Virus record (IMG/VR): IMGVR_UViG_3300027764_000014 | Coordinates: 1-35,691 of that record | DNA from: a virus | Lineage: Duplodnaviria; Caudoviricetes | Length of the DNA: 35,691 nucleotides | Direction: 5' to 3' (one strand) | Part shown: piece by piece, positions 5,687 to 23,624 of the stretch | How the letters are laid out: every line of letters begins with the position of its first letter | Numbering within the stretch: the stretch's first letter is position 1 | Position numbers and translations under genes: made by a program | The notes under the pieces: model-generated | What the model was told of the DNA's origin: nothing | What the model saw: the letters and a program-made list of their open reading frames with translations, nothing else | Databases searched by the model: none

Positions 5687-5694
5687 TACCTTTG
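5687..5694 (+). promoter_or_regulatory. -7 promoter element (TACCTTTG) with no downstream ORF
   Basis: TAnnTTTG match immediately after the stop codon, about 40 nt before a terminator stem. Confidence 0.5.
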
Positions 5695-5698
5695 TTAC

Positions 5699-5770
5699 GC
5701 GTTCATCGTGTTTCATTGGGTGTTGTGGTTTGGTTAGCAAGGTCGGGGAATATCTCCGACTTTTGCTTTT
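5699..5770 (+). ncRNA. Candidate antisense sRNA-A (GU-rich seed with two CAU triplets plus terminator)
   Basis: Seed GCGTTCATCGTGTTTCATTGGGTGTTGTGGTTTGGTT is complementary to several start-codon regions. Terminator stem GTCGGGGA/TCTCCGAC plus U-tract. Confidence 0.6.
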
Positions 5771-5778
5771 ATAATGTA

Positions 5779-5820
5779 CTTGTTAGCATACCATAAGAAC
5801 TGCTAACAGGTCTTTTTTTT
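5779..5820 (+). terminator. Second intrinsic terminator of late operon
   Basis: CTTGTTAGCA...TGCTAACAGG followed by TC and T8. Confidence 0.7.
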
Positions 5821-5856
5821 AAACAAAAATACCCATCAACAAAGTCAATGGGTATT
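5821..5856 (-). terminator. Intrinsic terminator after dnaB
   Basis: Minus strand AATACCCATTGAC-TTT-GTTGATGGGTATT-TTTGTTT. Confidence 0.75.
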
Positions 5857-5879
5857 CTAATAAACACTATGAAATCAAA

Positions 5880-7235
5880 TTAAAATCCTTTTGATGTATA
5901 AGATGGGTTTAATTCCCTAATCTTGCTTGTTGCTACATCTATAAATAAATCAGCAGTTCTTGTATCCCCATCTCTATTCTTCATAAAGATGTACTCAATT
6001 ACATTATCAAAAACTACATTGTTATTGCCTTCCTCTTTAGCTTTCTCATACTTATAATAATCATCTCGGTATAAACCAATAACTACTGAAGCATCTTGTT
6101 CTATTTGTCCCGAAGAACGCAAGTCAGATAGCTTTGGTCTGTGAGATGTTCTACCTTCTGATTGGCGATTTAATTGTGCTGCACATAAGAAAGGAATGTT
6201 TAACTTCTTGGCTAATTGTTGAATCTTTTTGGAAACTGAGCCAACTACTGCCGTTTCATCATTGCTTCTAATAGAACTATCTGTTATAAGTTGTAAGTAA
6301 TCTACTACAACCATATCAATATTCTTTTCTCGAACAATCTTTTGTATTAAAGTGGATAGGTAATTTATATCTCGGTTTGCTCCATCATACCAAGTAATAG
6401 GTAACTTCTCAAGGTTAGTTACTGCTTTCTTTTGAATGTTGCTAAATTGATTAATATCTATTCGACCTGTTTTAATTTTAGAGTAAGGAGTTGAGTCATC
6501 TAATTGACCACTAATCATTCGGTAAATTAAGGATACAACAGGCATCTCTAAAGATAAGAATAGTACCTTCTTGTTCATCTCTCCTGCACATCTTGAATGC
6601 TCAAGTAAGCAAATGGTCTTTCCTTGCCCAGGTCGTGCTGCAAACAAGATAACATTACCCTTTAGCCAACCACCTGTAACATTGTCTAAGATATTGTATC
6701 CTGTTGGAACTCCCGATAAGCTACCATTAGTCATCACATCCCCGATATTTTCAACTGCACAACTTAAAGCAGACTTCATGTCCATAACTTCATTTGTGTC
6801 ATTTTGAATAATATCGGTAGATGTAACTTTATTAATCTTGTCAATAATTGAGAAATAATCTTCACCATTAACTAATGAATTATTAACTTCTCTGCTCATT
6901 GCAAGAATATCTCTTTTGCCTTTAAGTTCTGCTAAGTAGTAAATTACTTCTTGAGCATTCATTGGAGTTCTTGTTGTAGATGCCATCATAACATCTACCC
7001 AATCATTGCTTCCTTTTGATTTTAAGCGAATAATAATATCAGACTGAGTGAATGTACCTTTTTCAGAAAACAATTCAACACAAGTCAAATATACTGCCTT
7101 AGTTGTACTAAAGTGAAACACATCAGGATTGATTATCTTTTGAATGTCCTTTGTGTAATTTGGGTGGTTCATTAGAAGTGCTAAAATTTCTCTTTCAGCA
7201 TCTAAATCGGTAAATGCTACTTTATCTTGTTTCAT
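5880..7235 (-). CDS. dnaB: Replicative DNA helicase
   Basis: AARPGQGKT Walker A, FLSLEM, VVVDYLQL, QLNR, DLRSSGQIEQDA and KNRDG motifs. Confidence 0.95.
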   Translation of the reverse strand: MKQDKVAFTDLDAEREILALLMNHPNYTKDIQKIINPDVFHFSTTKAVYLTCVELFSEKGTFTQSDIIIRLKSKGSNDWVDVMMASTTRTPMNAQEVIYYLAELKGKRDILAMSREVNNSLVNGEDYFSIIDKINKVTSTDIIQNDTNEVMDMKSALSCAVENIGDVMTNGSLSGVPTGYNILDNVTGGWLKGNVILFAARPGQGKTICLLEHSRCAGEMNKKVLFLSLEMPVVSLIYRMISGQLDDSTPYSKIKTGRIDINQFSNIQKKAVTNLEKLPITWYDGANRDINYLSTLIQKIVREKNIDMVVVDYLQLITDSSIRSNDETAVVGSVSKKIQQLAKKLNIPFLCAAQLNRQSEGRTSHRPKLSDLRSSGQIEQDASVVIGLYRDDYYKYEKAKEEGNNNVVFDNVIEYIFMKNRDGDTRTADLFIDVATSKIRELNPSYTSKGF

Positions 7236-7251
7236 AGTGTGTTGTGTTTTA

Positions 7252-7935
7252 CTAAAATAAATCTAATTGTTTTGTTGGATAATCTTTTCCTAATAAAACA
7301 TCTCCCCATTGTTTTGCCATCGCATCAGCAATTCCTTTAAAAGTCTTGCTTCTTAAAGTCCTTCTTTCTGCTGGTGATTTTGCTTTTTGAAGTGCTTCAT
7401 AATACCATAATGCTTGCCTTTTTGTTTTACCTGTCTTTTTATCTTTCCATTCCATAAATTCTCCTTTTTCAACAATATTAGTATGAATTAGCTTTGGAAG
7501 ATTTTTTAACCATAAACAAGTAGACTTTGATGCTTTATCTCCAAAATGATATGGATGTACAATTTGGTCAGGCTTTCTAATTTTACTTGAAATTACAGAA
7601 ATTGGATTTTCAATTGCTATATGTTTAATATTTGAATCCATTAATTTTTGAACAAAAGCTAAACCATCATTTTGATTTTTTAACCTTTCCATATTAATTG
7701 AGCCATCTTTATTATATAGATGCCTTGCACCACTAACTGCTAAATAAGTGCAAGGTGGATGAGCAATCATCATATCCCAACCTTTATCAATTATTTCAAA
7801 TACATCTCCTTGATAATGCCATTGAGGTTCTCCTCCAGAACATGGTAACAAATCACAAGAATATGCTTCAAAACCTAATTTTCTAAAAGCCTTTGTAACT
7901 GCCTGACTTTCCTCACAAGCTATTAAAATTTTCAT
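7252..7935 (-). CDS. Orphan DNA cytosine-C5 methyltransferase-like protein
   Basis: ACEES SAM-binding start, HPPC catalytic motif, ENP, and RSKTF.GIA.AMA.QW; no cognate REase nearby. Confidence 0.8.
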   Translation of the reverse strand: MKILIACEESQAVTKAFRKLGFEAYSCDLLPCSGGEPQWHYQGDVFEIIDKGWDMMIAHPPCTYLAVSGARHLYNKDGSINMERLKNQNDGLAFVQKLMDSNIKHIAIENPISVISSKIRKPDQIVHPYHFGDKASKSTCLWLKNLPKLIHTNIVEKGEFMEWKDKKTGKTKRQALWYYEALQKAKSPAERRTLRSKTFKGIADAMAKQWGDVLLGKDYPTKQLDLF

Positions 7936-7937
7936 AA

Positions 7938-8414
7938 TTAAAACTTAAAAGGGTTCGAAGTTTGTGGTTTGATAATCATCTTTTGGATATATCCTTCATC
8001 TTCCCAAGTTCGTTGATTAAGATATGTTACAGGATGCTTTCTAAACTTAATATCAGGTGTTGATTTTAAATAGTGTGGCAAAGTTTCAAATATTTTCTCA
8101 ATATCCTTTATAGGTAGCTTTAAAAACTTTGTCTTTGCATCCTTAGTACCAATCTTTTTATCATACATCTCCCAGAACTTATTGAAATGCTCCTCCTTTT
8201 GATTGACCTCTTGAAGAATCTCTTGGGCACTAACTTTTGGAATTTGTGGTAATGCAATTGATTTATCAATGTGGTAAATTAATTCTAACCCTTCTGTTCC
8301 ACTTAACTTAGTTTCATTTAGTGAATCAAGTAATTCTTGGTCTTTAATTGCGTAGTGAAACTTGCTTAAAAGTTCTTGTAAGAAATCACCGAGTGCTAAT
8401 TGTTTTGTTTTCAT
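7938..8414 (-). CDS. Replication initiator/replisome-organiser-like protein
   Basis: Start re-called at 8414 (ACAACACA leader). C-terminal F..FW..Y.KK.G...A...F and HP.TYLNQ..WEDE motifs; close to dnaB. Confidence 0.7.
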   Translation of the reverse strand: MKTKQLALGDFLQELLSKFHYAIKDQELLDSLNETKLSGTEGLELIYHIDKSIALPQIPKVSAQEILQEVNQKEEHFNKFWEMYDKKIGTKDAKTKFLKLPIKDIEKIFETLPHYLKSTPDIKFRKHPVTYLNQRTWEDEGYIQKMIIKPQTSNPFKF

Positions 8415-8649
8415 TGTGTTGTTCGTTATACCAATCTTTAAATTTCTTAATTCGCATAAATGCAGCAAATTGTTCTCTGTTTTTCGAAAATTCCAATCTA
8501 TTAATTGAAACTAATAATGATTCATGAGAATTGTGAATTATAATATTATCATAACATTTAAAGTCAATCATTGGCTCTTTTGTTTTAATAAAATCAGTAG
8601 CCCAATCAACTGCCATTTGGTAGTATTCATCTTGCTTAGATTCCTCCAT
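8386..8649 (-). CDS. Hypothetical protein
   Basis: 87-aa ORF in the overlapping gene chain. Confidence 0.6.
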   Translation of the reverse strand: MEESKQDEYYQMAVDWATDFIKTKEPMIDFKCYDNIIIHNSHESLLVSINRLEFSKNREQFAAFMRIKKFKDWYNEQHNENKTISTR

Positions 8650-8908
8650 TTTCTTTGAGTTTAATTCTATCCATTTTAGCTTTTAAGTATTGCCTTTTAC
8701 GCATTTCTGTTGCATCATAAATTTTCATGTAGTTCGACATTGACCTAAGTAATAATTTGCTATTACACTCACAATTAAAACTAATTGATGCACTATTGCC
8801 AACCTTAAAGAATCTTTCCGCAAGGTTTGTTTTTGAATAATCATAATTGCAAACTGGGCAATTAAGTTCATCTTGGGTTAGTGTCTTTCCTCTAATTCTC
8901 ATTTGCAT
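8636..8908 (-). CDS. Small zinc-finger-like protein
   Basis: CPVC...CEC cysteine pairs. Confidence 0.55.
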   Translation of the reverse strand: MQMRIRGKTLTQDELNCPVCNYDYSKTNLAERFFKVGNSASISFNCECNSKLLLRSMSNYMKIYDATEMRKRQYLKAKMDRIKLKENGGI

Positions 8909-9117
8909 TTATGTTTTATTTTAAATGTAAAGTGCTTGCAACCATAAAAGACATAAGAAGAATCAAAATCATCATGAAAAGTTTCTTGAAATTCATCTCG
9001 TTCATATACCAAGGGTGTTTGCGTGTTCATCATCTGAGATTTTGAACTCCATGACAAAATAATTGTGAGCAATAACACTAATGGGATTGCAATTAGGAAT
9101 TTTCTTAGCTTCTTCAT
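8899..9117 (-). CDS. Small secreted/membrane protein
   Basis: Basic N-terminus plus hydrophobic stretch; ATGA overlap with the upstream ORF. Confidence 0.55.
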   Translation of the reverse strand: MKKLRKFLIAIPLVLLLTIILSWSSKSQMMNTQTPLVYERDEFQETFHDDFDSSYVFYGCKHFTFKIKHKCK

Positions 9118-9296
9118 ATTCTTCCAGCATTTTGATAACTACTTCCCGATTGTCTTTTAATGCTTGTTCGTGTTGATTTAGGTTCTTTGCCATAAAGTTT
9201 TTTGTAGTTTAATTTAAGTTGATAATCTAAATTTATACCCCATTCGGTATAAGTTAAACCAAGTTGATTTGTTTTGAATTTGTGTTGTGCGTTCAT
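9114..9296 (-). CDS. Hypothetical protein
   Basis: 60-aa ORF starting 1 nt after the exonuclease stop. Confidence 0.55.
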   Translation of the reverse strand: MNAQHKFKTNQLGLTYTEWGINLDYQLKLNYKKLYGKEPKSTRTSIKRQSGSSYQNAGRI

Positions 9297-9297
9297 T

Positions 9298-10038
9298 TTA
9301 AAATAGATAAGAGTTAATGTAATATTGATTAATGTCCATGTAAGAGTTTACCCCGAAAAAGTTGTTATAAACCTCAACTCCTTTAGCAACCTTAGTCCAA
9401 CCATTCTCTAAAAACTCATCTGAGCATTGAAAGAATCCTAAACGATTTGTTCCTTTTTCGATAACAATAAATGCCATCTTTTTACCAAATAATTGCTGAT
9501 AAATTGAAGCTTGAGAATCGTAATTATACTTCTTAGCTGAATACTTAAAATCATCCAACGAAGTTGTTGTCTTTAAGTCATAAATAACATCTCCATTAAT
9601 TACATCTGCTTTACCTTTGAATGGTAAGTCCATTATTACTCCAGTAGTAGGAACTTCATATTTACAACCATTATCCCAAACTAATTTAGATAACTCACGA
9701 TTGTTTCTCAAAGCTTTAACCATCCAATCTACTTCTTCAGCCTCCTTAGTCAAAAGCATAAAGTCTAAACTTCTTTCTTTGCAAGCATCCTTGTATAAGT
9801 TGGTAGTTCTTGTAGAAGCATCAACTAAAGGGAAATCTTTTAATTTATGAGGCTCTAAGCAAGCAGTATGAAAGTAATTCCCTTGTAACATTGCCAATGT
9901 CTTTTCAGTTGGCACTCCAAACATTTTAGGATTTCTTAATAAAACTCCAATGTCTGAATTAGATAAATAGTTACGACCTACTCCATTGTAGTATTCGTTG
10001 TCATCTTTAAGTGTTTCAATTATTTCTGGTGCGTTCAT
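9298..10038 (-). CDS. PD-(D/E)XK exonuclease, RecE/ExoVIII-like (DUF3799-type)
   Basis: LS.S, G..FH...LEP, KGKAD...IYDLKTT, Y..QA..Y and FIVIEK motifs. Confidence 0.85.
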   Translation of the reverse strand: MNAPEIIETLKDDNEYYNGVGRNYLSNSDIGVLLRNPKMFGVPTEKTLAMLQGNYFHTACLEPHKLKDFPLVDASTRTTNLYKDACKERSLDFMLLTKEAEEVDWMVKALRNNRELSKLVWDNGCKYEVPTTGVIMDLPFKGKADVINGDVIYDLKTTTSLDDFKYSAKKYNYDSQASIYQQLFGKKMAFIVIEKGTNRLGFFQCSDEFLENGWTKVAKGVEVYNNFFGVNSYMDINQYYINSYLF

Positions 10039-10043
10039 TTGGT

Positions 10044-10241
10044 TTATCTTTTAAAAGTTACTTGATATTTGGCTTTAAAGTAATCTCTAACATCTCCACT
10101 TGGGCTTACATAATCAAAGTCATCTGGGTAAATATCATTGACCATAAACTCAAGAAGTTGAAATATTTGCTCCCAATGAGCATTAGAAAGAATCTCTTGT
10201 TGTTCTAACCACTTTGGGTCATTTGGGATTATACCATTCAT
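10044..10241 (-). CDS. Hypothetical protein
   Basis: 65-aa ORF in the operon chain. Confidence 0.55.
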   Translation of the reverse strand: MNGIIPNDPKWLEQQEILSNAHWEQIFQLLEFMVNDIYPDDFDYVSPSGDVRDYFKAKYQVTFKR

Positions 10242-10440
10242 TAGCGATGCGTTTTAAATATTCTTCTACTTGTGGGTCATTAATGTTATTGTAGGCATGA
10301 GATTGAACGATTCCTATCGTGTATTCTCTACCCCTGTAAGGAAGTTTTTTATCTTCATTTAATTGTCTTGCAGTTTCCTGGAACAATTCAGAATAACTTC
10401 TTCCTCTTGGAATTGGTAGTTTTTCTTTTGATTTATTCAT
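10219..10440 (-). CDS. Hypothetical protein (possible DNA-binding)
   Basis: 73 aa; TARQLNE..LP.RG..YT resembles a recombinase-type HTH segment. Confidence 0.5.
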   Translation of the reverse strand: MNKSKEKLPIPRGRSYSELFQETARQLNEDKKLPYRGREYTIGIVQSHAYNNINDPQVEEYLKRIANEWYNPK

Positions 10441-10718
10441 AATACTTTAAATGCTAAAATGTTATTGATTGGAATACACATTTGCTTTACAAGTTTTGGT
10501 AACATTTCTCTTTTACCTTTACTAATGTGTTCCTCCATGATTGAGAAGTTTAGGAAAGGTTCGGGGTGGTTTACTATAACCATGTTCCCCGAATCACTAA
10601 CTCCTAAAATTTCAGATTCTAAATCTTCTTCTAAGTTTCCAAATTTGAAAATGAATCTTGCTTTATAGCCAATACTGCGTTCAATAGTTTTGACTAATTT
10701 ATTTGCGTTGCGTGTCAT
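10437..10718 (-). CDS. Hypothetical protein
   Basis: 93 aa; CACAACACACA leader. Confidence 0.6.
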   Translation of the reverse strand: MTRNANKLVKTIERSIGYKARFIFKFGNLEEDLESEILGVSDSGNMVIVNHPEPFLNFSIMEEHISKGKREMLPKLVKQMCIPINNILAFKVL

Positions 10719-10736
10719 TGTGTGTTGTGATTAAAC

Positions 10737-10931
10737 TTAGTTTAAAGAATCAATCGTTTGATTAAATGCAATTAATTGAATAACCTCAGAGGTTTTAAGT
10801 ACGCAAGTACCTTCATTTAATCCTTCTTGAGTAATTGAATTTTGACTTAAATAATCAATTTCTTCAACATCAATCCATGTTCTTATAATAGCATCATCTT
10901 TTCTTGTTGTAATCTTTACAAATTTTCTCAT
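10737..10931 (-). CDS. Hypothetical protein
   Basis: 64-aa ORF filling the gap. Confidence 0.55.
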   Translation of the reverse strand: MRKFVKITTRKDDAIIRTWIDVEEIDYLSQNSITQEGLNEGTCVLKTSEVIQLIAFNQTIDSLN

Positions 10932-10955
10932 TGTCTTTATTATTTAAAATGTGAA

Positions 10956-11597
10956 TTAAAAAGGTAATGGGTCGTTTTCTTCTACTTTGTCTAACTTAAA
11001 TACTTCTTGCTTTGGTGAATCCATTGAGAATTTGGATTTGTATTCAGGAGTTGAACTAATCTTATCAGCCAACCACTCAGGTAGTGTCATAAACAAGTCT
11101 TGATTCCATGAATCGTAAGCTAATACTCTTGTAGGATTAATTTGCTCAGGGCATTGCAATCCCTTTGGGATAGGAGTGATACCTGTAATGTTTGCGTAAG
11201 TCTTTGTGCCATCAGCGGAAGCTTTATGTACAATGTTTAACATACAAGGTGCACCAACTAATTTAGAGATGTCAAAGTTTGCTGCCTCTTGGTCAGTAAA
11301 TGCTTTACCTCTCCATGATTCTAACATCTTACGAAGTGTAGACTTCTCGTTAAATGATAAGGTAAAGTCCTTAGAGATAACAAAAGGTTTAGCTTCTTCT
11401 CCTTCTTTAAATACCGCAGTTTCTAAAGGTAATTCGAAGTCTACCATTACTTTGTGTAGTTTCTTCTTTTCTCCCATGTACTCTTGCTCTACTGTACCGA
11501 TTTGAATCATACCGTAGCATCTTGCTACATGATTCCCTGCTGGTACTACTTTGCGTTCAAGGTTTCCACCTCCATTTGATTTAGCGAAAATTGCCAT
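10956..11597 (-). CDS. SSB-like phage replication protein
   Basis: P.G.HVARC, S..EKS.LRK.LESWRG, GAPCML motifs and an acidic tail ending DPLPF (SSB-type tail). Confidence 0.7.
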   Translation of the reverse strand: MAIFAKSNGGGNLERKVVPAGNHVARCYGMIQIGTVEQEYMGEKKKLHKVMVDFELPLETAVFKEGEEAKPFVISKDFTLSFNEKSTLRKMLESWRGKAFTDQEAANFDISKLVGAPCMLNIVHKASADGTKTYANITGITPIPKGLQCPEQINPTRVLAYDSWNQDLFMTLPEWLADKISSTPEYKSKFSMDSPKQEVFKLDKVEENDPLPF

Positions 11598-11622
11598 TGT
11601 GTTAATTGTTTAAGTTTAAAAT

Positions 11623-11868
11623 TTAAGAAATTGTAATATTGATTTTTAATTCTTGATTGTTAAAATCCCATTGGTTAAAATCTTGATGATACTTAGATAT
11701 AAAACCTTTATTTTCAAGGGCTGATAACTTATCAAAAAGTTTGTCTGAATAATGCCCTTGGATTGCAACTGATTGAGTTGTTTTCCAAAATGATACAATG
11801 TAGAAATCATCTAATTCCAAGCCTAAATTGGCTAAATCTGATTCGATAGTGTTAATTTGCTTTTTCAT
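11623..11868 (-). CDS. Hypothetical protein
   Basis: 81 aa; first gene after the promoter at 11897-11927. Confidence 0.6.
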   Translation of the reverse strand: MKKQINTIESDLANLGLELDDFYIVSFWKTTQSVAIQGHYSDKLFDKLSALENKGFISKYHQDFNQWDFNNQELKINITIS

Positions 11869-11896
11869 ATTTTTTTTGTTGTTGTTATTTGTTGAA

Positions 11897-11927
11897 CAAT
11901 ATTAGTAAACAATTACTTAGTAACAAA
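11897..11927 (-). promoter_or_regulatory. Leftward Bacteroidota-type promoter
   Basis: Minus strand TTTG-N19-TAATATTG. Confidence 0.65.
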
Positions 11928-11959
11928 ATAAATATTAAAAAATATTTAAAAATTAGTGA

Positions 11960-11997
11960 AAAAAAATAAAAAAGGGCTCTAAATATGCCAAGCCCTT
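11960..11997 (-). terminator. Intrinsic terminator
   Basis: AAGGGCT...AGCCCTT stem plus long U-tract on the minus strand, overlapping the stop of 11979..12341. Confidence 0.7.
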
Positions 11998-12341
11998 CTT
12001 TTTTGTTGCAAATAATTTCCTTTTTTCAACTCTTTAATTTCTTCTTCTTGGGATAAAATTACCTTGTTAAGATTCTCAATGATTCTAACTTTTACATCAA
12101 GTTCTTCTTTTAGCTTAAAATGCTCTGCTATTAGGTCATCCCAAGAGTTGTATAAACTTTCAACATCACCCTTTAATCTTTTAAGGTACAAAGCCCCATC
12201 AAGCATTTCTTCGTATGCGTGTTGAATCCAATCAACTTCATCTAAGTCTTCTCTATCAAGAGTATTATTATACTTCTTAATGCCAACCTGAGAACGATTA
12301 TGCAAATCTTCTCTTACTGATTCTACTATGCTATCTTCCAT
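11979..12341 (-). CDS. All-alpha NTP-pyrophosphatase (MazG-like) family protein
   Basis: R...G.KKY...L.R.DL...DW..H..EE..D...Y motif followed by coiled coil. Confidence 0.5.
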   Translation of the reverse strand: MEDSIVESVREDLHNRSQVGIKKYNNTLDREDLDEVDWIQHAYEEMLDGALYLKRLKGDVESLYNSWDDLIAEHFKLKEELDVKVRIIENLNKVILSQEEEIKELKKGNYLQQKRRAWHI

Positions 12342-12699
12342 TATAATTATTTAAGTCTATGTTATACTCTTGTAGCAACTTATTCATTCTATCATTTAAC
12401 TCTACTTTCTTATCTTCTTCCATTAAGTCCATCTCCAGACCAACATTGAAAAAGAACTCCATTACAAAAGATGCGTTAATAAATTGGTCAAGAACATTAT
12501 TCATATCTACTCCACCATTTTGCTTTGATTCAAAGATGTGGTTAATAGACTTCTCTAATTCACCTTTTAATTGGTTAGTTAGGTATTTAACTTTCTTAAC
12601 ATTGTGAGAGGAATTTGACCACCTATCTTCGATAAAGTCAGTCATGAAATTGCAAAGTGAGTAATAGGTAAGAAATTTGTGTGATTCTTTTTGTGTCAT
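12331..12699 (-). CDS. Hypothetical protein
   Basis: 122-aa ORF in the chain. Confidence 0.6.
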   Translation of the reverse strand: MTQKESHKFLTYYSLCNFMTDFIEDRWSNSSHNVKKVKYLTNQLKGELEKSINHIFESKQNGGVDMNNVLDQFINASFVMEFFFNVGLEMDLMEEDKKVELNDRMNKLLQEYNIDLNNYNGR

Positions 12700-12806
12700 T
12701 TTGATTTTAGGTTAAAAAGTTGTTTAAAATACTCAACTGGAATAAAAACTATTGAGATAAATACATCTACCAATAGCCAATACATTTCTTTTAATTTAGT
12801 TTTCAT
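12696..12806 (-). CDS. Small membrane protein (36 aa, not in ORF track)
   Basis: MKTKLKEMYWLLVDVFISIVFIPVEYFKQLFNLKSK; AACCAAACACACA leader; ATGA overlap with the next gene. Confidence 0.6.
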   Translation of the reverse strand: MKTKLKEMYWLLVDVFISIVFIPVEYFKQLFNLKSK

Positions 12807-12824
12807 TGTGTGTTTGGTTTAGTG

Positions 12825-13303: not shown

Positions 13304-13304
13304 A

Positions 13305-13794: not shown

Positions 13795-13820
13795 TTTTTA
13801 AATAGGAAAAAATAATTTTA

Positions 13821-13900
13821 GAAAAAAGAGGTGAAAAATAATTCCACCCCTTTAAATAATCACCTTTAACCTATCTATATGAAAAACAATCTACTACTAA
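13821..13900 (-). ncRNA. Candidate antisense sRNA-B (3' UTR of RHH gene: seed plus terminator)
   Basis: Minus strand TGTTTTTCATATAGATAGGTTAAAGG then terminator AAAGGGGTGGAA...TTTCACCTCTTTTTT. Seed is complementary to early-gene start regions. Confidence 0.6.
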
Positions 13901-14089
13901 TTAAATTGTGGAATTTTTGTCCATTAAATAGACCTTAATAAAGTCCTTGAACATTCCTTGCCAACCTATGCCAAATCTCTCATCTACTTCCTTCTTTAAT
14001 GCGGTTGGGATTCTAACTGAAATTACTGATGTTGGTTCACCTTGTGGGCGACCAGCTTTCTTTGGATTTTCTACTGTTTTAATATTCAT
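13901..14089 (-). CDS. Ribbon-helix-helix (CopG/Arc-like) regulator
   Basis: Start re-called at 14089. KAGRP then VISVRIP beta-ribbon and two helices. Confidence 0.7.
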   Translation of the reverse strand: MNIKTVENPKKAGRPQGEPTSVISVRIPTALKKEVDERFGIGWQGMFKDFIKVYLMDKNSTI

Positions 14090-14114
14090 TTTTTTCTTGT
14101 TGTGATTTCTTGTA

Positions 14115-14147
14115 CAAATGTAAACATTTATTATTAATAATTGCAAA
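14115..14147 (-). promoter_or_regulatory. Leftward Bacteroidota-type promoter
   Basis: Minus strand TTTG-N21-TACATTTG (consensus). Confidence 0.75.
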
Positions 14148-14153
14148 CATTAA

Positions 14154-14282: not shown

Positions 14283-14328
14283 ATAGGCTTGGGGCACTTT
14301 TTCCGCATTTCCTTGGCATCGCGCACCC

Positions 14329-14351
14329 TTATTTAGAATTAATCTAAATAA
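14329..14351. promoter_or_regulatory. 23-bp palindrome, Fur-box-like
   Basis: TTATTTAGA-ATTAA-TCTAAATAA with perfect arms; seven related copies at 16351-17399. Confidence 0.65.
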
Positions 14352-15566: not shown

Positions 15567-15594
15567 TGGATTAATTATTTAAGGTTAAAAATTA

Positions 15595-15753
15595 TTAATA
15601 TTCTAAAATTTCTTCGCACTCCCTACCAATATAATCACAAATTTGATAGACCTCAAAAAAATCATTTTTTAATATTGCTTCTTGCATTTCTTTAATTTGA
15701 GCTAAAATATAATTTTTTGCTTCTTCTTTTAATTCTAAATTTTGGGTTTTCAT
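15595..15753 (-). CDS. Small acidic early protein (52 aa, not in ORF track)
   Basis: MKTQNLELKEEAKNY...GRECEEILEY; same TTTTAACCTT leader as its neighbours. Confidence 0.65.
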   Translation of the reverse strand: MKTQNLELKEEAKNYILAQIKEMQEAILKNDFFEVYQICDYIGRECEEILEY

Positions 15754-15778
15754 AATGTTTTTTTTTAAGGTTAAAAAT

Positions 15779-16099
15779 TTAGTTTTCTTCTAATTGCTTT
15801 GCCTCTATTGCTTCTTCTATTTCATTTTGGTCAAATTCTTCATTAACCCAGTCGTAAAGGGCACAATATGCAGCCTGACAAATTCCGTTTATTTCTCCAA
15901 ATTCATGACCTGTAAAATCAGTAAAATTAAGGGCTTTACAAATATCGAAACAGTCTGAATAATAAATTACTGAATTATCAATATAGGAATGAATATAATC
16001 CCAAATTTCACTGGTATCTGTTAAATACCCATTTTTAATATCGTTTAATAAATCATTTTTAAGGTCTTCCAAAAAACCGTATTTGTTAAATGTGCTCAT
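15779..16099 (-). CDS. ocr: Ocr-like DNA-mimic anti-restriction protein
   Basis: 106 aa, very acidic. DTSEIWDYIHSYIDNSVIYYSDCFDI aligns by eye with T7 gp0.3 [27 protein letters not shown] (recalled); located in the early cassette. Confidence 0.7.
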   Translation of the reverse strand: MSTFNKYGFLEDLKNDLLNDIKNGYLTDTSEIWDYIHSYIDNSVIYYSDCFDICKALNFTDFTGHEFGEINGICQAAYCALYDWVNEEFDQNEIEEAIEAKQLEEN

Positions 16100-16126
16100 A
16101 TAGATTGTATTTAAAAGGTTAAAAAA

Positions 16127-16261
16127 TTAAGATAATAAAGTAATAACAGTAAGCATTGCTAACAAGCCTACCACCTGTTTTAACAATAGGATTAAATCCG
16201 ATTTTGTAAGGTCTTCACCTAAAAATAATTCGATAAGTTCGCGTTTTGTTGTGTTTTTCAT
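16127..16261 (-). CDS. First early gene, 44-aa membrane protein (not in ORF track)
   Basis: MKNTTKRELIELFLGEDLTKSDLILLLKQVVGLLAMLTVITLLS; directly downstream of the promoter. Confidence 0.6.
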   Translation of the reverse strand: MKNTTKRELIELFLGEDLTKSDLILLLKQVVGLLAMLTVITLLS

Positions 16262-16289
16262 TTTGTTATTGTTTATGTTAAATGATATG

Positions 16290-16320
16290 CAATACTAATA
16301 ATTGTAAACAACAATACAAA
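16290..16320 (-). promoter_or_regulatory. Early leftward promoter
   Basis: Minus strand TTTG-N19-TAGTATTG. Confidence 0.65.
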
Positions 16321-16350
16321 AGAAAAGTAAATTATTTTTACAAAAGACTG

Positions 16351-17399
16351 TAATTTATAATCATTCTAAATAAGCACACCTTTAAAAAAACTTATCTTAA
16401 ATGCTTGCATATTAATAAAAGTTTTACCTTTTTTCTAATTACAATTTATACCCCTTTATTACACTATTAAGTATACTATATCATTACACTAATAAGTATA
16501 CTATATAGTGTACTTAAAGAGTATTCTATCCTTTCTCTTTGTTTTCTTTGCTTACTTTCTTTTATTTCTCTTTGTCGTTTATCCAGGTTATTTGACCGTA
16601 TAAACTTATAAACCTATTAACCCTTATAAACCCCCTATTTTGTTTCTGTTGCACTATCTTAGTGCTTCGCTTATGTTTCCCTATCCAAGCTATTAAAGTC
16701 CTTTAAACTCAAAGTATGGGGCTTTAAATTCAATCCTTATTCTATTTAGATTCAGTCTAAATAAGTAACCCCTTTGTTATGTGGATTGAGTCTAAATAAA
16801 TACATTTTGTAGCTATTTAGGTTGAGTCTATACAACATATACCCCATGTAATTAGTATTCTATTTGTAGTCCCTTTGCTATCCTTTGCTTTGCTTTTTTG
16901 TTATGCTTTGGTGTGACTGATTGACCAAATGTAACCAGATAGATTAACAAGTGTAAAACCAATTTATTAAAGTGGTGTAAAGGATAGGAAACCCTGAAAA
17001 GGTAGGGTGGCTACCCCCCGACTACCACCTTTCTTATTGGTGTACCCTATTGATACCTACACTATACCACCTTAATAGGTATGTTATTGGGTGTTTCTGT
17101 GGTGTATGGGAGCATTTGAGGGGGTGTACCCCAAAAGGTGTGGAGCAAAAGGGGTAGGGGGTGATTGGTCGGGGTATCCAACAAAAAAAACCTAAGAAAA
17201 TTTGGGTAATACCTGTAAACACCGCAGATAAAAATTAGGTAAAAACAAAGAAATTAGATTGAATCTAAATAAGAAGTGTTATGTTTGTGGTGTAAACATT
17301 ATTAAGACTGAGTCTAAATAAGGCAAAAATCGGGTTTAACTATTAGATAAGAGGTTGGTTATTAAGTAGTTAGGTCTTATTTAGATTCATTACAAATAA
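16351..17399. repeat. Dispersed array of seven Fur-box-like palindromes
   Basis: Copies start at 16351, 16742, 16777, 16813, 17250, 17299 and 17377; consensus TTATTTAGA-nTnAn-TCTAAATAA. Confidence 0.8.
16458..16506. repeat. 24-bp direct repeat (period 25), iteron-like
   Basis: ATTACACTATTAAGTATACTATAT / ATTACACTAATAAGTATACTATAT; 18 bp of it recurs inverted at 17442-17459. Confidence 0.75.
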
Positions 17400-17560
17400 G
17401 AAAAGATATATATTATATTATTATACTCTTTAGTGTACTACTTAGTGTAATGATATAGTGTAATATGTTTTCGGTTAGCCAATTTTAGAAAATGTTTTGA
17501 TTTCTGATTTCGTTTTAAAAAAATACAAACCCAATTTGAAACCCTTTAATAACTACACTT

Positions 17561-18043
17561 ATGAGTGAAGAAAAGAAAAGAGAGGTTCATCCAAATAGTA
17601 TTAAGAACTTAAAGCCTGTTCAAAAGGGTGAGGTTCGTAATCCTCATGGTAGACCAAAGAGTATGATTCGCAAAGTGATTGAGGAAGCAGGAGATATACT
17701 TGATGTTAAGTTAAGTAGACACGATGTAATGAGTGTTACTGCTTTGGTGCAATCAATGACTGTTAGTGAGATTAAAAGAGTTGCATCTGATTCACAAACC
17801 CCAGGTTTTATTGCAGTAGTAGCCAATGCCATCTTAGGTGACATTAAGAATGGTGAGATGAAGAATACTCAGTTCATGTTAGAATTTCAGCATGGTAAGG
17901 CATTACAAGCCATTCAAATGGAAAAGGTAGTTAGAGAAGATATTATAGACCCAAGACAATTAAGCGATGAAGAAATTAGACAACGACTATCGGAACTTCG
18001 AGAAAGAGATATTGAGGAGAGAGATTTCGAGGAGGTCATTTGA
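17561..18043 (+). CDS. terS: Terminase small subunit
   Basis: NLKP..KG...NP.GRPK N-terminus and LSDEEI C-terminus; overlaps terL. Confidence 0.8.
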   Translation: MSEEKKREVHPNSIKNLKPVQKGEVRNPHGRPKSMIRKVIEEAGDILDVKLSRHDVMSVTALVQSMTVSEIKRVASDSQTPGFIAVVANAILGDIKNGEMKNTQFMLEFQHGKALQAIQMEKVVREDIIDPRQLSDEEIRQRLSELRERDIEERDFEEVI

Positions 18044-19349
18044 TAACTTTGTAAAGTATATCAAGCCCGATTATGATATGCAATGGTTTCACAAAGTTAT
18101 TGCAGACCATTTAGATAAGGTGCTTAATGGAGAGATAAAGAAGTTAATGATATTTGTGCCTCCTCAACATGGGAAGTCTGAATTATCTACTCGTAGCTTT
18201 CCAACTTATGCCTTAGGTAAGAAGCCTAATTTAAAAATTGCTCTTGCATCTTATAACGCAACCTTAGCTGAACAATTTAGTGCTGAGATTCAAAGAAGGA
18301 TTACAAGCGATGAGTATAAAATATTGTTCCCTGATACTCGTGTTAGCGAAAAGAAGGGTGAGGCTATTAGAACTGCTGAGTTTTTTCAAATTGTTGGTAC
18401 AGGTGGTTATTTAAAAGCCGTTGGTCGTGGTGGTTCACTTACTGGAACTGCCGTAGACTTAGGTATTATAGATGACCCCTTAAAAGACCGACAAGAGGCT
18501 CAATCTAACATTATTAAGGAGCAGTTGTGGAATTGGTACACCGATGTGTTCGAAACTCGCTTACATAACGATTCTGCACAAATCATTATTCAAACTCGGT
18601 GGTATGATGATGACTTAGCGGGTCGCTTGCTTGAAAGAGATGATGATTGGACAATTATTGAGTTCCCCGCTATTCGTGAAAGAGCCGAGAATGATTATGA
18701 CCATCGTGTTGAGGGTGAGGCTCTATGGGAGGCTAAACATAGTGCTGAGAAGTTATTAAGGGTTAAAAAGAACGAACCTTTTACTTTTGAATCACTTTAT
18801 CAGCAAAACCCTAAGCCAAGTAGTGAATCCTTGATTTATCATGATTGGCAAGTATGTGAGTTCTTTCCAAAAGATGCAGAAGTTATATTTAGTGGTCTTG
18901 ACTTTGGATTCTCTAATGACCCAACTGCTTTGATAAGAATTGCGAAAATTGGTAATAAGTTGTACCTTGACGAAGTAATTTACGATAAAGGATTAACTAA
19001 TTCCGATTTGGTTAAAAGGTTAGAAATGTATCCCGATAAAATGGGAGAGATTTATGCCGATAGTGCAGACCCTAAATCTATTGAGGAATTACGCAGGGCG
19101 GGTGTCAAAGTTCTTAAAGCAGTAAAAGGGAACGATTCCGTTAATGCTGGTATTAGTAAATTGCGGGAGTATGAAGTGTATTATACTCGCAGGTCAAAGA
19201 ATATCAAAAAAGAAGTGGACAATTATCAATGGCTAACAGTTGGTGGTAAACCAATCAATAAACCGATAGATGATTTTAACCACGCACTTGATGCTATTAG
19301 ATATGCGATTTATACGAAGTATTCTAAAAAGAAACTCTTAATTTTTTAA
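17967..19349 (+). CDS. terL: Terminase large subunit
   Basis: PPQHGKS Walker A, IIDDP Walker B, TRW..DDL.G, GLDFGF..DP and NH.LDA.RY motifs. Confidence 0.95.
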   Translation: MKKLDNDYRNFEKEILRREISRRSFDNFVKYIKPDYDMQWFHKVIADHLDKVLNGEIKKLMIFVPPQHGKSELSTRSFPTYALGKKPNLKIALASYNATLAEQFSAEIQRRITSDEYKILFPDTRVSEKKGEAIRTAEFFQIVGTGGYLKAVGRGGSLTGTAVDLGIIDDPLKDRQEAQSNIIKEQLWNWYTDVFETRLHNDSAQIIIQTRWYDDDLAGRLLERDDDWTIIEFPAIRERAENDYDHRVEGEALWEAKHSAEKLLRVKKNEPFTFESLYQQNPKPSSESLIYHDWQVCEFFPKDAEVIFSGLDFGFSNDPTALIRIAKIGNKLYLDEVIYDKGLTNSDLVKRLEMYPDKMGEIYADSADPKSIEELRRAGVKVLKAVKGNDSVNAGISKLREYEVYYTRRSKNIKKEVDNYQWLTVGGKPINKPIDDFNHALDAIRYAIYTKYSKKKLLIF

Positions 19350-19352
19350 ACA

Positions 19353-20726
19353 ATGGGATTATTTGATTTTTTAACTGGCAAGAAAGCCGTAAATGTGTCT
19401 GCCCAACCTGGCAAGCAACAACAATTTTTTTTAGGTGGTCAAACCTATTCTTTGTATAATGCTGATTATCGTAATGCGATAATGAATGGCTATGAGAAGA
19501 ATGTGGATGTTTATGCCATTATTAGTGATATTGCCTCTCGTGCAGTAGAAGTACCGATTGAACTATATCAATCAAGCAAAGTTGATATTAAGAAGGCAGA
19601 GAGATACAAATCTTTGTTAATGCGACCAAATGATAGAAGTATCATGGAAGCTAACTTAATTAAGAAAAACAACTTAAAAGAATTAGAAGAACATCCTATT
19701 TTGCAATTGTTAAGACAACCTAACAGTTATCAAACTACAAAGGAGTTTTTTGAATCAATTTTCTCTTATTACTTACTTTTGGGTGATGTTGGTATTTATG
19801 CTGAAGAAGACCCATTAAGAAAAGGTAAGATTGCAAGACTTCATGTTATTGCAGCAAATGATTACCAAATCGTAACTGATGGATTTCGTACTATTGTTGG
19901 GTATAATATTTTTTCTTTAAATGCTAAGAATGTAGACCCTAAGTATTTCTTATCTTTCCGTTCATTTAATCCAAACGAAACCAACTTTACTTCGATACCT
20001 CGTGGATTCTCTCCATTACAGGCAGGCTCAAATGTTTTGCAAAAAGCAAACTCTGGAGAAGAAGTTGCAATTGAGAATTACGAAACTCGTGGTGCAGTAG
20101 GTATGCTTTATACTGATGACCCTAATGTTCAAGATATTAGTGGTTCAGGATACCAAGATTTACAAGACCGAGTTTATGATAAAGTTTATAACTCTGCTAA
20201 CCAAGGTCGTATTGCTTTCTCAAATACTAAAATGGGTTATTTGAAATTATCTACAAGCAACATTGATTTAGACCTTCGCCAAATGAGCAAGTTGTCTACT
20301 GAGCAGTTGTGTCGTTTATGGCATTACCCTTATGTGCTTTTAAACTCAGATAACTTAACTGAAAGCAACTTAGCACACTTTATTCGCAGAATGATTATTA
20401 ACTGTGTTATTCCTTTGCAATCTAAGGTGTTAGAGAAAATGCTTGCTTGGTTGTCGCCAACAATGAACATTAACCCTGCTCAATACATTTTGCGTTTTGA
20501 TGTTGATGCTTACCCTGAGATGAAGCAAAACTTTTTAGATGCAGCTTCTATTCTTGAGAAACTTGATGGTGTTCTTACTCAAGATGAGAAAAGAGTGTTT
20601 ATGGACTTTGAGCCAACTAACGACCCAATTATGCAAAGTGTTTATATTAAATCAAATCAAGTGCCAATCGGTAGTTTAAATATTGACCCTACCATTATTG
20701 GTTCTCCAATTATAGATGAAGATTAA
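19353..20726 (+). CDS. Portal protein (HK97 family)
   Basis: Position after terL; LL..PN..QT..EF, G.SPL and LT.DE.R motifs. Confidence 0.9.
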   Translation: MGLFDFLTGKKAVNVSAQPGKQQQFFLGGQTYSLYNADYRNAIMNGYEKNVDVYAIISDIASRAVEVPIELYQSSKVDIKKAERYKSLLMRPNDRSIMEANLIKKNNLKELEEHPILQLLRQPNSYQTTKEFFESIFSYYLLLGDVGIYAEEDPLRKGKIARLHVIAANDYQIVTDGFRTIVGYNIFSLNAKNVDPKYFLSFRSFNPNETNFTSIPRGFSPLQAGSNVLQKANSGEEVAIENYETRGAVGMLYTDDPNVQDISGSGYQDLQDRVYDKVYNSANQGRIAFSNTKMGYLKLSTSNIDLDLRQMSKLSTEQLCRLWHYPYVLLNSDNLTESNLAHFIRRMIINCVIPLQSKVLEKMLAWLSPTMNINPAQYILRFDVDAYPEMKQNFLDAASILEKLDGVLTQDEKRVFMDFEPTNDPIMQSVYIKSNQVPIGSLNIDPTIIGSPIIDED

Positions 20727-20727
20727 T

Positions 20728-20865
20728 ATGGATTATATAAATTCAATTATATTAATAGTTAGTGTAGTAGGTTCTTTCTTGCTTGGGTTCATGATTACTT
20801 ATGAGCCTGAGCATAAAAGAATTGAACGCAAAAAAGTTGAACGCATATTTCGAACAAAAAAATGA
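20728..20865 (+). CDS. Small membrane protein (45 aa, not in ORF track)
   Basis: MDYINSIILIVSVVGSFLLGFMITYEPEHKRIERKKVERIFRTKK; starts 1 nt after the portal stop and overlaps the next gene by ATGA. Confidence 0.6.
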   Translation: MDYINSIILIVSVVGSFLLGFMITYEPEHKRIERKKVERIFRTKK

Positions 20866-21593
20866 ACGAAAAACAATATATTCGTGCTTGGTCAAGAAGA
20901 CAAGATATGAATGAAAGAGGTTTTTATGCTTTTCTTCAAACAAAGTTAAACATTGAAACAAAGGAGTACATTAAAAGTCTTGATGGGAGAAATCCAAATA
21001 CTTTTTATATAACATCACACTTTAGTGACAAGTGGATGATGGAAATATTAAAAGATGCTTATTTAAAGTTTGGAAGAAAGCAAAATGAGTTCCTTAATGG
21101 CACAAATAAAAAAGCTGAAGATGATGAGTTTAGTAACGCATGGTCTTTGCTTGTTCTTTTGCTTTTTAACAACATAGTAGAGTTTATTGTGATACTTGGT
21201 ATCATTAGAACAATTAAGAACGATATAAAGCTATTTGTAGAAGATAAAGTTAGTCGTGGAATACCAACAAGTGCAATAATTACTTTACTTGCATTATACC
21301 TAACTCAAAAAAATGTTATTAGGGCTCAAACAATTGCAAGGACTGAAATTACAAAGATTATGAATCTTGCAAGTTTGGAGTGGGCAAAACTTGAGAAAAA
21401 AGAATTAAAGAAAAAGTGGATAGTAACAATGGATGGAAGGGAAAGAGCAAGTCATGGTGCAATGGCAGATTACCCTGCTATAAATTTTTCTGATAAGTTT
21501 ATTGTTGGTGGTTTTCCTATGGATGCCCCAGGAGATTCATCTGCTCCAGTATCCGAGTTAGTAAATTGTAGATGTGGAGTAATGTTCATATAG
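20862..21593 (+). CDS. Minor head/head morphogenesis protein (SPP1 gp7/Mu gpF-like)
   Basis: RA..IARTE, K.W....D.R.R.SH and PGD......E.VNCRC motifs. Confidence 0.85.
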   Translation: MNEKQYIRAWSRRQDMNERGFYAFLQTKLNIETKEYIKSLDGRNPNTFYITSHFSDKWMMEILKDAYLKFGRKQNEFLNGTNKKAEDDEFSNAWSLLVLLLFNNIVEFIVILGIIRTIKNDIKLFVEDKVSRGIPTSAIITLLALYLTQKNVIRAQTIARTEITKIMNLASLEWAKLEKKELKKKWIVTMDGRERASHGAMADYPAINFSDKFIVGGFPMDAPGDSSAPVSELVNCRCGVMFI

Positions 21594-21623
21594 TTTGGTA
21601 ATTATTAATTTTTGTTATATTTG
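21594..21623 (+). promoter_or_regulatory. Promoter for protease/capsid genes
   Basis: TTTG-N18-TATATTTG. Confidence 0.6.
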
Positions 21624-21640
21624 CAAATATTGAATTAGAT

Positions 21641-22369
21641 ATGAGAGATTATAAAATAAAGTCATTAGGAGAAGTTACTGAGGTAGATTTTGAAAAGCGA
21701 ATCGTTACAGGTTATGCTGCTAAGTTCGGTAACATTGATTTACATGGTGATATGATAATGCCTGGTGCATTTACAAAAACCATTAAAGAAAGAGGTGTAG
21801 ATGGCAAGAATGAAATTTGGTTCTTACATGACCATGATTCATCTAAACCTCTTGGAAAGCCACAAGTATTAAAGGAAGATTCTTTTGGTCTTTACTTTGA
21901 AGCTAAAATTGTTGATACCGAAGTTGGTGAGGATATTCTTAAACTTTATGAAGAAGGTTTAATTAATCAGCACTCAATTGGGTTTTCTACAATTAAAGAA
22001 AATAAAGTTGAGCCGAAAGGTTCTGCTCCTTATTACGAAATTCAAGAGGTTAAGTTATTTGAATTTTCTTCAGTTTTATGGGCTGCAAATCCTGATACAC
22101 CATTTATGGGTCTAAAGAATTTAGATTCAAATGGTTTAAGAGAAAGATTTGATAAGCTATACAAAATGCTGAGAAAAGGAAATTTAAAAGATGAAACCTA
22201 TGAATTGTTAGAAATTGAGTATAACTTTATCAAGTCGGAAATGTTCAAGCTAATTGATAGCAGAGAGAAGTCGGAAATTATCACCACTCTTGAAGATGTT
22301 AATCCAGAAGAATTAATCCAAAAACAACAATTAGAATTTTTACAACAATTAAAAAACTCGTTTAAATAA
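21641..22369 (+). CDS. Prohead protease (HK97 family)
   Basis: GYAA.FG..D..GD....GAF, L.DH, SIGF and L.E.S.V...ANP motifs. Confidence 0.9.
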   Translation: MRDYKIKSLGEVTEVDFEKRIVTGYAAKFGNIDLHGDMIMPGAFTKTIKERGVDGKNEIWFLHDHDSSKPLGKPQVLKEDSFGLYFEAKIVDTEVGEDILKLYEEGLINQHSIGFSTIKENKVEPKGSAPYYEIQEVKLFEFSSVLWAANPDTPFMGLKNLDSNGLRERFDKLYKMLRKGNLKDETYELLEIEYNFIKSEMFKLIDSREKSEIITTLEDVNPEELIQKQQLEFLQQLKNSFK

Positions 22370-23553
22370 TGGAGGATATTAAAAAATTAGTTGAGGAAGT
22401 AAAAGGCGACCTTAACGAGATGATTCAAAAAGGTGTTAGTCGTGAAATCGAAGGTTTAAACATCGATGATTTGACTAACCAAGTAAAGAATGCAGGTGAG
22501 AAATATGCCTCATTAGAAGAAAAATTAGGTTTAGTAGAAAAAGGATTGTCTGATGCAATCTTGGATGTTCGTGCTAAAAATGTAGAAACTGTAAGCGAAT
22601 CTGATTTGCATAAAGTATTCTCTGAGAATGTAGGACAATTTAAATCATTAGAACGCGTTTCTAAAGGTGGTTTTTCTTTGAACACTAAGGCAGTTGGTAC
22701 AATGACTTTGCCTGTAAACATTGGTTCTGATTGGGCTTCTAAGATTGCAGGTTTGTCAAACACAATCTTAACTGACCCTTTGCGTACAATTCACTTGAGA
22801 GATTTGATGCGTACTTCTGTAATTGAGCAGAATGGTGTATTTAAGTTTGCTAAGAAAAGTGGTGGAGAAGGTGCAGTAGGTATCCAAACTGAAGGTTCAT
22901 CTAAGTCACAAATTGATTACGACTTTACTATCAGCGAAGTAACTCCAAAGACTATCGCAGTATTTTCTCGTATCTCTAAGCAGATGTTATCTCGTTTAAG
23001 CTGGTTACAAAACTTTGTATCTACTCAAATGGTAACTGATTTGCAGAACTTCGAAGATGACCAATTGATGGACATCGCTGGAACTTCTGATTTCTCAGGT
23101 TTGTGGGAAAATGCAACTACTTATGTACCTTCAGGTTCAGTAGTAGCAGGTTCTAACCGTTGGGATAAGTTGGCTAACGCAGTTGCTCAACTTCGTGCTG
23201 CTCGTTTTACTCCAAATGCAATCTTGGTTAATCCAATTGACCAAATGGAATTGTTGATTAACAAGGAGTCTGGTGCTGGTTATTCATTCCCTGCATTAAT
23301 TGCAAGTGGTAACTTATCAGTAGCTGGTGTACCTGTAATTGCAACTGACATCATGCCTGTTAATTCATTCATGGTAGCTGACTTAGCAAAAGGTGCTGAA
23401 TTATTGTTCGAAGATAACATCAATACTGAGTTCTCTTACGAAGATGCTGACAACTTTACTAAGAACTTGGTTACAGTTCGTGTTGAGGAGTCTGTTGCTT
23501 TACCAATCTATTACGGTTCAGCAATGAGAAAAGGTACTTTTGTAGTAGCATAA
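22369..23553 (+). CDS. Major capsid protein (HK97 fold)
   Basis: N-terminal coiled delta domain; EG..K, N.I.VNP.D, G.PV and F.KN.VT.R.E motifs. Confidence 0.92.
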   Translation: MEDIKKLVEEVKGDLNEMIQKGVSREIEGLNIDDLTNQVKNAGEKYASLEEKLGLVEKGLSDAILDVRAKNVETVSESDLHKVFSENVGQFKSLERVSKGGFSLNTKAVGTMTLPVNIGSDWASKIAGLSNTILTDPLRTIHLRDLMRTSVIEQNGVFKFAKKSGGEGAVGIQTEGSSKSQIDYDFTISEVTPKTIAVFSRISKQMLSRLSWLQNFVSTQMVTDLQNFEDDQLMDIAGTSDFSGLWENATTYVPSGSVVAGSNRWDKLANAVAQLRAARFTPNAILVNPIDQMELLINKESGAGYSFPALIASGNLSVAGVPVIATDIMPVNSFMVADLAKGAELLFEDNINTEFSYEDADNFTKNLVTVRVEESVALPIYYGSAMRKGTFVVA

Positions 23554-23586
23554 TTTATCTTTTTTGTTTGTTTTGTGTTAATTATG

Positions 23587-23624
23587 TAAGCCTACTTCCC
23601 ATGAGAACAGTAGGCTTATTTTTT
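23587..23624 (+). terminator. Intrinsic terminator after capsid gene
   Basis: TAAGCCTACT...AGTAGGCTTA plus T6. Confidence 0.8.

Follow-up and report, generated by a model that had tools for sequence, protein, structure and literature searches.

What do the short, terminator-capped segments at several operon ends of an uncultured phage genome act on, if they act as RNA? The genome is a 35.7-kb siphophage-like record (IMGVR_UViG_3300027764_000014, positions 1 to 35,691; this whole stretch of DNA is called the window below), with terminase, portal, capsid and tail genes on the + strand, a replication block on the − strand, and lysis genes plus a phosphoesterase/exonuclease (PE) gene closing the + block. 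We infer a Bacteroidota host from A-rich leaders without Shine-Dalgarno (SD) sequences, TAnnTTTG motifs before operons and the matches of PE, which include Flavobacterium phages though the top score is a Synechococcus phage. A preliminary description of this DNA recognized four such segments, here S1 to S4, each with a seed containing CAU (anti-AUG) followed by an intrinsic terminator, and proposed an RNA-only cascade in which the RNA of each temporal transcript shuts another gene class. Seed and hairpin sequences are found at all four positions and, judged by conservation and complementarity, three of the four elements are real, namely terminator-capped anti-start-codon sequences kept in a family of uncultured Bacteroidota-type phages. 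Directly established are the sequences, their positional conservation, a complementarity above controls and, for S1 and S2, the co-change of seed and target. We consider it probable that the three segments serve as antisense brakes on the phage's own translation, and the best reading of two of them, S1 and S2, is one of feedback loops rather than of a clean class-to-class cascade.

For the system as a whole the preliminary description could name no described precedent; its architecture is already known in bacteria. As described in the available portions of the two source papers, FopS (Rfam RF04319; PMC11697453) and GibS (PMC7366714) are small RNAs (sRNAs) of Bacteroides thetaiotaomicron that repress by start-codon pairing. 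In common with the phage elements they have a single-stranded 5′ seed of the form UUUUCAU...GGUU and then an intrinsic terminator, about 70 nt in all; they also have an origin from a sigma-ABfr promoter or a 3′ untranslated region (UTR) and pairing across the start codon, which for the phage elements are predicted. The seed-and-terminator design is present in S1, S2 and S3, and the S4 seed fails it. Against the Rfam FopS cut-off of 56 bits, S3 scores 28 bits (E 2.5) and the best of 36 relatives 33.6, so that 0/36 pass, and the Rfam search gave no FopS report for S1 or S2 at E ≤ 5. Whereas FopS comprises 14 near-identical paralogues in the accessible text, the window has three divergent seeds; unlike FopS and GibS, they are predicted to target genes of the phage itself, seed and target changing together by lineage, and the S2 target is the gene directly upstream of the element. 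The same FopS text mentions one copy in a Caudovirales phage.

Pairing of the seeds with start regions

Each seed was paired with 59 curated phage start regions; controls were 672 internal-ATG windows and two sets of 60 shuffles of that seed, one mono- and one dinucleotide. A panel of 526 starts from four Bacteroidota genomes represented host-type genes, and cross-genome pairing was scored by an own-written duplex program (correlation with RNAduplex 0.955). The top-5 mean of S1, −26.2 kcal/mol, was equalled by 0/60 mono- and 0/60 dinucleotide shuffles, whereas S2 (0/60 and 3/60) and S3 (3/60 and 2/60) were borderline and S4 (8/60 and 26/60) was at chance. The share of starts under the 5% quantile of the internal-ATG windows does not discriminate the seeds, because it is 6/59 for every one of them, S4 included. 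Of the comparison proposed in the preliminary description, energies against shuffles and non-start windows, the shuffle half favors S1 and speaks against S4.

A covariance model built from 33 S1 and S3 sequences, with S2 and S4 kept out of training, gives 38.4 bits to S2 against 17.9 bits (E 0.42) to S4, and the S1/S3 hairpins show two-sided changes in 9 of 11 pairs. When 81 Bacteroidota genomes were searched with this model, about 58 candidates being scored per genome, one of the 81 matched. The proposal that gene classes carry distinct leaders is borne out across eight genomes, where TAACC[TC] is biased to early genes (21/65, against 7/201 middle and 1/208 late) and ACAC[AT]ATG stands in 27/201 middle, 7/65 early and 0/208 late leaders; the latter motif occurs in 0/526 host-type genes.

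S1, S2 and their predicted targets

S1 lies on the + strand. A −7 motif of the Bacteroidota sigma-ABfr type (TAnnTTTG, 5687–5694; the consensus comes from the B. thetaiotaomicron data in the available part of PMC7366714, the host here being an inferred Bacteroidota) stands directly 3′ of the PE stop and predicts a transcript start near 5699, from which the G/U-rich seed (5699–5735, with the anti-AUG CAU at 5714–5716) leads into a terminator hairpin and U tail (5736–5770). No convincing −33 box was found with the −7 motif, and a sigma-70 promoter scan, the wrong promoter type for such elements, was at chance level. Among relatives we found 80 PE loci and used 78 (two cut at the gene end were omitted), which reduce to 53 distinct 3′ regions. 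The exact motif lies within 14 nt of the PE stop in 27 of these, and a relaxed one in 10 more, compared with just 12 of 987 other genes; a terminator follows PE in 38/53, with an anti-AUG box in 37 of the 38, and is absent from the other 15. A scan of 12 phages for TTTCAT with a G/U-rich seed and terminator returned eight matches, all with the promoter motif, whereas nine control triplets gave 0–10 matches with 0–2 promoters; a strict scan for promoter, seed and terminator over 707 kb of sequence, drawn from four Bacteroidota genomes, returned one locus, without promoter, and a metagenome pattern scan 34 matches, five of them S1 in phage context. Promoter, seed and terminator are also retained where PE is swapped for a different upstream gene. 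From this arrangement, S1 is probably a stand-alone sRNA gene of about 70 nt with a host-type promoter motif, and having its own promoter motif it need not derive from the late transcript.

The best partners of S1 in the window are the starts at 10718 (−30.4 kcal/mol) and 12806 and those of endolysin and dnaB, and energies of −18 kcal/mol or lower are reached at 5/59 phage starts vs. 7/526 host-type starts. By class, S1 pairs better with early (z −0.15) and middle genes (−0.21) than with late ones (+0.25), and therefore its lysis match is not general: of the earlier assignment of this seed to replication and lysis leaders, the replication half stands and the preference for lysis or late genes does not. 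The start at 10718 belongs to a 93-residue protein (10437–10718, − strand) with a predicted Sm/Hfq-like fold from AlphaFold and structure comparison, and its start region (10711–10741) is the best predicted S1 target. This start ranks first for S1 in seven genomes (G001–G005, G123 and G125), and in the window it ranks first by RNAduplex and second by the in-house program; the gene is the best S1 target in 8/13 genomes, from two lineages with differing seeds, a count that leaves out G007. In G123 and G125 both the seed and the Sm-like gene leader differ from those of lineage A, yet the match in G125 is a perfect 16 nt, and the G123 seed gives −28/−29 on its own lineage vs. −9 to −11 on lineage-A starts.

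In a cognate test, the S1 seeds of 24 genomes in nine groups were paired with each genome's called starts. The own-group residual was −1.76 kcal/mol and negative in 9/9 groups (permutation p 2e-4); two sets of one genome per group gave −1.93 and −2.22 (p 8e-4 and 8e-5), values reached by 0/16 leader and 0/16 seed shuffles in each set, and internal-ATG controls stayed at about zero. As read from these residuals, S1 seeds follow the leaders of their own lineage.

The AlphaFold model of the 93-residue protein (pLDDT 94) consists of a helix followed by five strands, as in the N-terminal helix and five-strand barrel of Hfq and Sm proteins. The best Foldseek rows are Sm, Lsm and Hfq (E 0.013–0.06, none ≤ 0.001), and VIA-align gives Z 7–8 to Hfq, tied with WYL, GerQ, RimP and designed SH3 barrels. 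Unlike Hfq and Sm proteins, it has no sequence-profile match (0 Pfam families at E ≤ 0.5 and 0 PHROGs at E ≤ 0.001) and its model carries a long insert between the middle strands; ESM Atlas matches, all below 0.9, are leads at most, and searching protein representatives with a profile brought in two relatives of full length. The protein is therefore best described as an Sm-like fold lead, a candidate rather than an established RNA chaperone. A phage LSm-like fold is known from the T4 GoF family, a mutant of which affects the mRNA of helicase gene 41 (PMC12152347, available in part). Unlike GoF or Hfq, the window's gene is also one that a phage sRNA is predicted to target.

S2 closes the replication operon on the − strand. 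Its seed (5858–5879) and terminator hairpin (5826–5858; z −4.7, and found by the model trained without it) follow dnaB (5880–7235, −; DnaB-like replicative helicase, PHROG 19 at E 1e-78, with Pfam PF03796/PF00772 on homologues), and positions 5864–5874 exactly complement the start region of dnaB (−5 to +6, 7230–7240), a region that is the predicted target of S2 and is also among those of S1. Across lineages the complement is perfect over 11–13 nt (up to 14 nt among further pairs) and differs in register, spanning the AUG in lineage A, lying mostly on the first codons in B and mostly on the leader, without CAU, in C. In energy dnaB ranks first among the genome's own starts for S2 in 7/9 genomes and second in 2/9, and in five further genomes it ranks first in four and fourth in G124. 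An out-of-sample set of 86 further loci yielded 59 full-length genes, two without a called hairpin, and 34 distinct pairs; all 13 pairs with a new start region rank within the top 14 of 1420 starts, with 12–14 perfect nt in 11 and 9 nt in two. Two divergent lineages show bulged matches of 8 and 10 nt, in one of them despite a further gene lying between dnaB and the element. An equilibrium fold of 1450 nt, which ignores ribosomes and cotranscriptional folding, gives the S2-dnaB helix a probability of 0.86–1.0. On this complementarity S2 mirrors the start of a gene of its own operon, not of another class. The preliminary description had missed this match, together with the promoter motif at 5687–5694 and the predicted Sm-like fold of the top S1 target; the covariation of seeds and leaders that it proposed to look for in relatives is seen for S1 across the nine groups and for S2 in the 13 new pairs.

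Several further features were noted around S1 and S2. The gene 5′ of S1 is a different phosphoesterase-like or unrelated gene at locus L317 (263–1477) and in G122, G124 and G126, where S1 stays. The start at 12806 is that of a 36-codon open reading frame (12696–12806, −) under the first length cut-off, whose leader is among the best S1 matches (−25.8). Positions 5771–5820 hold an extra hairpin-like insert between the convergent terminators, shared with L007 and not with the closest relatives; in L020 a similar stretch lies within the orthologue of S1. In some relatives S1 and S2, both intact, are separated by an HNH-type gene that has a promoter-like motif of its own, and such an insertion is seen downstream of S1 in L005, L008, L036 and G002.

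S3, S4 and the early region

The S3 seed (13854–13900, −), of FopS type (UUUUUCAU...AGGUUAAAG), and its terminator hairpin with U tail (13818–13853) lie in the 3′ UTR of the mRNA of a small 62-residue putative regulator (13901–14089, −), which has a TAnnTTTG motif at 14115–14122; no motif of that type was found before S2 or S3 themselves. The regulator is putatively a ribbon-helix-helix protein, a label that comes from reading the sequence, without a profile hit. Predicted S3 targets in the window are early-gene leaders with a TTTTTAACCTT box (15567–16130, −; starts 15566, 15753 and 16099). S3 pairs best with early starts in 8/8 genomes (z −0.95; shuffled seeds 0.07 ± 0.11), as had been proposed for this seed, and G124 shows the same preference, giving 9/10 testable genomes.

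S4 (23547–23626, +) is a conserved terminator after the major capsid gene, the seed of which is not supported. As an anti-start seed (23549–23624) it was rejected, since its pairing is at chance, its CAU is formed by the last codon plus the stop, and its score is 17.9 bits; from its sequence S4 is an ordinary terminator. A conserved terminator-capped noncoding stretch without an anti-AUG box also follows family f90 in G010, G021, G024 and G030, all of the second group.

The early region also contains a 19-bp palindrome in seven copies (14331, 16353, 16744, 16779, 17252, 17301 and 17379), of which that at 14331 fits the Riemerella Fur-box consensus at 18/19 positions (PMC5609570; the host here is an inferred Bacteroidota). 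There are 4–7 copies in 8/8 complete first-group genomes, 2–6 in five more and 0–1 in the second group, and they may be host Fur sites, placing the early region under iron control, or a phage operator. Over 86 nt the two window ends (1–86 and 35606–35691) share 92% identity; because they lie in a run of paralogous tail-fibre-like genes (34537–35689), their junction may reflect a tandem paralogue and not a true terminal repeat.

Antisense brakes and rival explanations

In the reading we favor, S1 would be a trans-acting sRNA made from a host-type promoter that represses several replication-module genes, the Sm/Hfq-like gene foremost, and might form a feedback loop with this predicted phage RNA chaperone. 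S2 would be the last 55 nt of the replication transcript, pairing with the dnaB start and capping helicase output. It could do so in cis, clamping the completed message end to end, or as a stable 3′ fragment that acts in trans. S3, carried on the small-regulator mRNA, would lower the output of early genes, and perhaps also that of host genes sharing this generic leader. Because Bacteroidota initiate without SD pairing, with leader structure and nearby adenines tuning initiation (PMC6847099, available in part), a helix over the start should block initiation, for which GibS and FopS are the precedent. We infer, rather than observe, that the segments are transcribed, that they pair inside cells, repress and set timing, and that the Sm-like protein may have a part to play with RNA. 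Lambda OOP and aQ, P22 sar and sas, and the trans-acting sRNAs PreS and VpdS are likewise phage RNAs that tune phage or host genes through base pairing, some acting at translation starts; in the part of PMC12197685 available, the lambda and P22 RNAs are each antisense to one gene and PreS and VpdS use host Hfq, whereas the seeds of S1–S3 are encoded away from the target start. A literature search, in which subscription papers were thinly covered, returned no self-targeting anti-start sRNAs in Bacteroidota phages and no dnaB 5′–3′ clamp.

A number of observations weigh against this reading. S1 does not match the Sm-like gene in 5/13 genomes (G006, G008, G122, G124 and G126), in which the Sm-like gene ATG mostly sits a few bases past an upstream stop codon, and the fold in question is common to WYL, GerQ and RimP domains. 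The element at the S1 position in G122 and G126, after the late block, lacks CAU. A cultured phage with the same phosphoesterase gene has no such element, which was found neither in Lillamyvirus NC_048835 nor in 6 kb of Elizabethkingia phage TCUEAP1. Two leader shuffles in the 24-genome cognate test gave −0.16 and −0.98, the latter a cognate signal (p 0.0025), so composition contributes to the S1 result. S3 is degenerate and without an anti-AUG box in 4/13 genomes (G122, G123, G125 and G126), shows no early preference in G123, and pairs no better with phage starts than with the 526 host-type starts. Finally, duplex energies ignore accessibility, the relatives' gene starts come from a simple in-house caller, and the lineage groups were set by eye, without a tree, and are not independent. 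As a separate observation, the best predicted partners of the CAU-less elements include the orthologue of window gene 2286 in both G122 and G126 and a tail chaperone start in G122.

Among the alternatives, the elements might be FopS mimics aimed mainly at the host, silencing generic AAACCT...AUGAAAAA leaders or titrating an RbpB-like protein, with matches to phage genes arising since phage leaders resemble host leaders. FopS, in the available text of PMC11697453, binds RbpB and represses susC genes, and S3 pairs equally with the host-type panel. A scan for the S3-type pattern covered 13/64 genome parts; in the first 80 of 120 loci (49 Bacteroidota by title), 37/55 Bacteroidota matches correspond to the reverse complement of a gene start whose frame stays open for at least 50 codons and 11/55 are seed-plus-terminator units, vs. 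0/31 elsewhere. The AACCT box of the "early leaders" therefore marks a type of leader found throughout the phylum. S1 and S2, however, match specific phage genes above nearly all of 1419–1420 other starts and co-change with them, and the ACAC[AT]ATG leaders are absent from the host-type genes, so that we regard host mimicry as unlikely for the set as a whole; for S3 it may hold. In the same loci, FopS-like seed-plus-terminator units occur outside Bacteroidaceae in Arcicella (L181, L212, L222), Flectobacillus (L187) and Prolixibacteraceae (L164), with near-identical clustered triplets in the three Arcicella genomes only.

The original cascade, in which each transcript's RNA occludes another class, draws on the class-biased leader motifs, the preference of S3 for early leaders, the avoidance of late leaders by S1, and the second-group S1 orthologue, which closes the late block and often matches genes just downstream. 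Several points speak against it: S2 is aimed at dnaB within the same operon, S4 pairs at chance level, and S1 has its own promoter motif and pairs alike with early and middle classes, while S3, lost or degenerate in those four of 13 genomes, is dispensable in two lineages. The circuit also may not be RNA-only, because the phage encodes the predicted Sm-like protein. We judge the cascade to be quite unlikely as proposed. More doubtful again is an origin at the DNA level or by neutral processes, as inverted repeats bracketing dnaB or inverted-duplication relics of leaders with no RNA role. In its favor, dnaB is indeed flanked by an inverted repeat made of its own start and the S2 seed, a high AT content inflates the matching, and shuffling a leader can leave partial signal; yet sequence and register vary by lineage while remaining on the start region, inverted dnaB is seen in 0 of 9 genomes and 0 of 5 more, the S2 match persists despite the inserted gene, seed changes from CAU to CGU preserve a G-U pair, and S1 is kept whole behind a different upstream gene. 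That function resides on the opposite strand, with the reversed seeds serving as mini-gene leaders or ribosome decoys, is highly improbable: each does resemble a strong leader plus ATG, with a 24-codon frame in lineage A, but promoter motif and U tail are both oriented against this, and antisense mini-genes were rejected, with frames of 3–28 codons, no conserved peptide and ACG for ATG in 2/24 genomes.

For the antisense-brake reading, the design itself is known from FopS and GibS, and what appears new is self-targeting, lineage-specific co-change and a gene whose 3′ end mirrors its own start. For bacterial sRNAs, evidence of seed and target changing together between lineages is seldom to be had; here it singles out two particular targets. 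A gene whose 3′ end mirrors its own start suggests a simple limit on protein per message. More speculatively, and with a rather low probability, the phage may encode a self-contained posttranscriptional kit for a host without Hfq, comprising the Sm/Hfq-like chaperone, S1, the S2 clamp and S3, which would time infection at the RNA level: S1 would feed back on the chaperone and replication genes, the clamp would silence each finished helicase message, and S3 would retire early genes. If the Sm-like protein is indeed an RNA chaperone, it would be a phage-supplied one in a phylum without an obvious Hfq homologue (PMC7366714, in its available part). Independently of that protein, the elements extend the FopS/GibS design from the metabolism of gut Bacteroides to the predicted self-regulation of phages.

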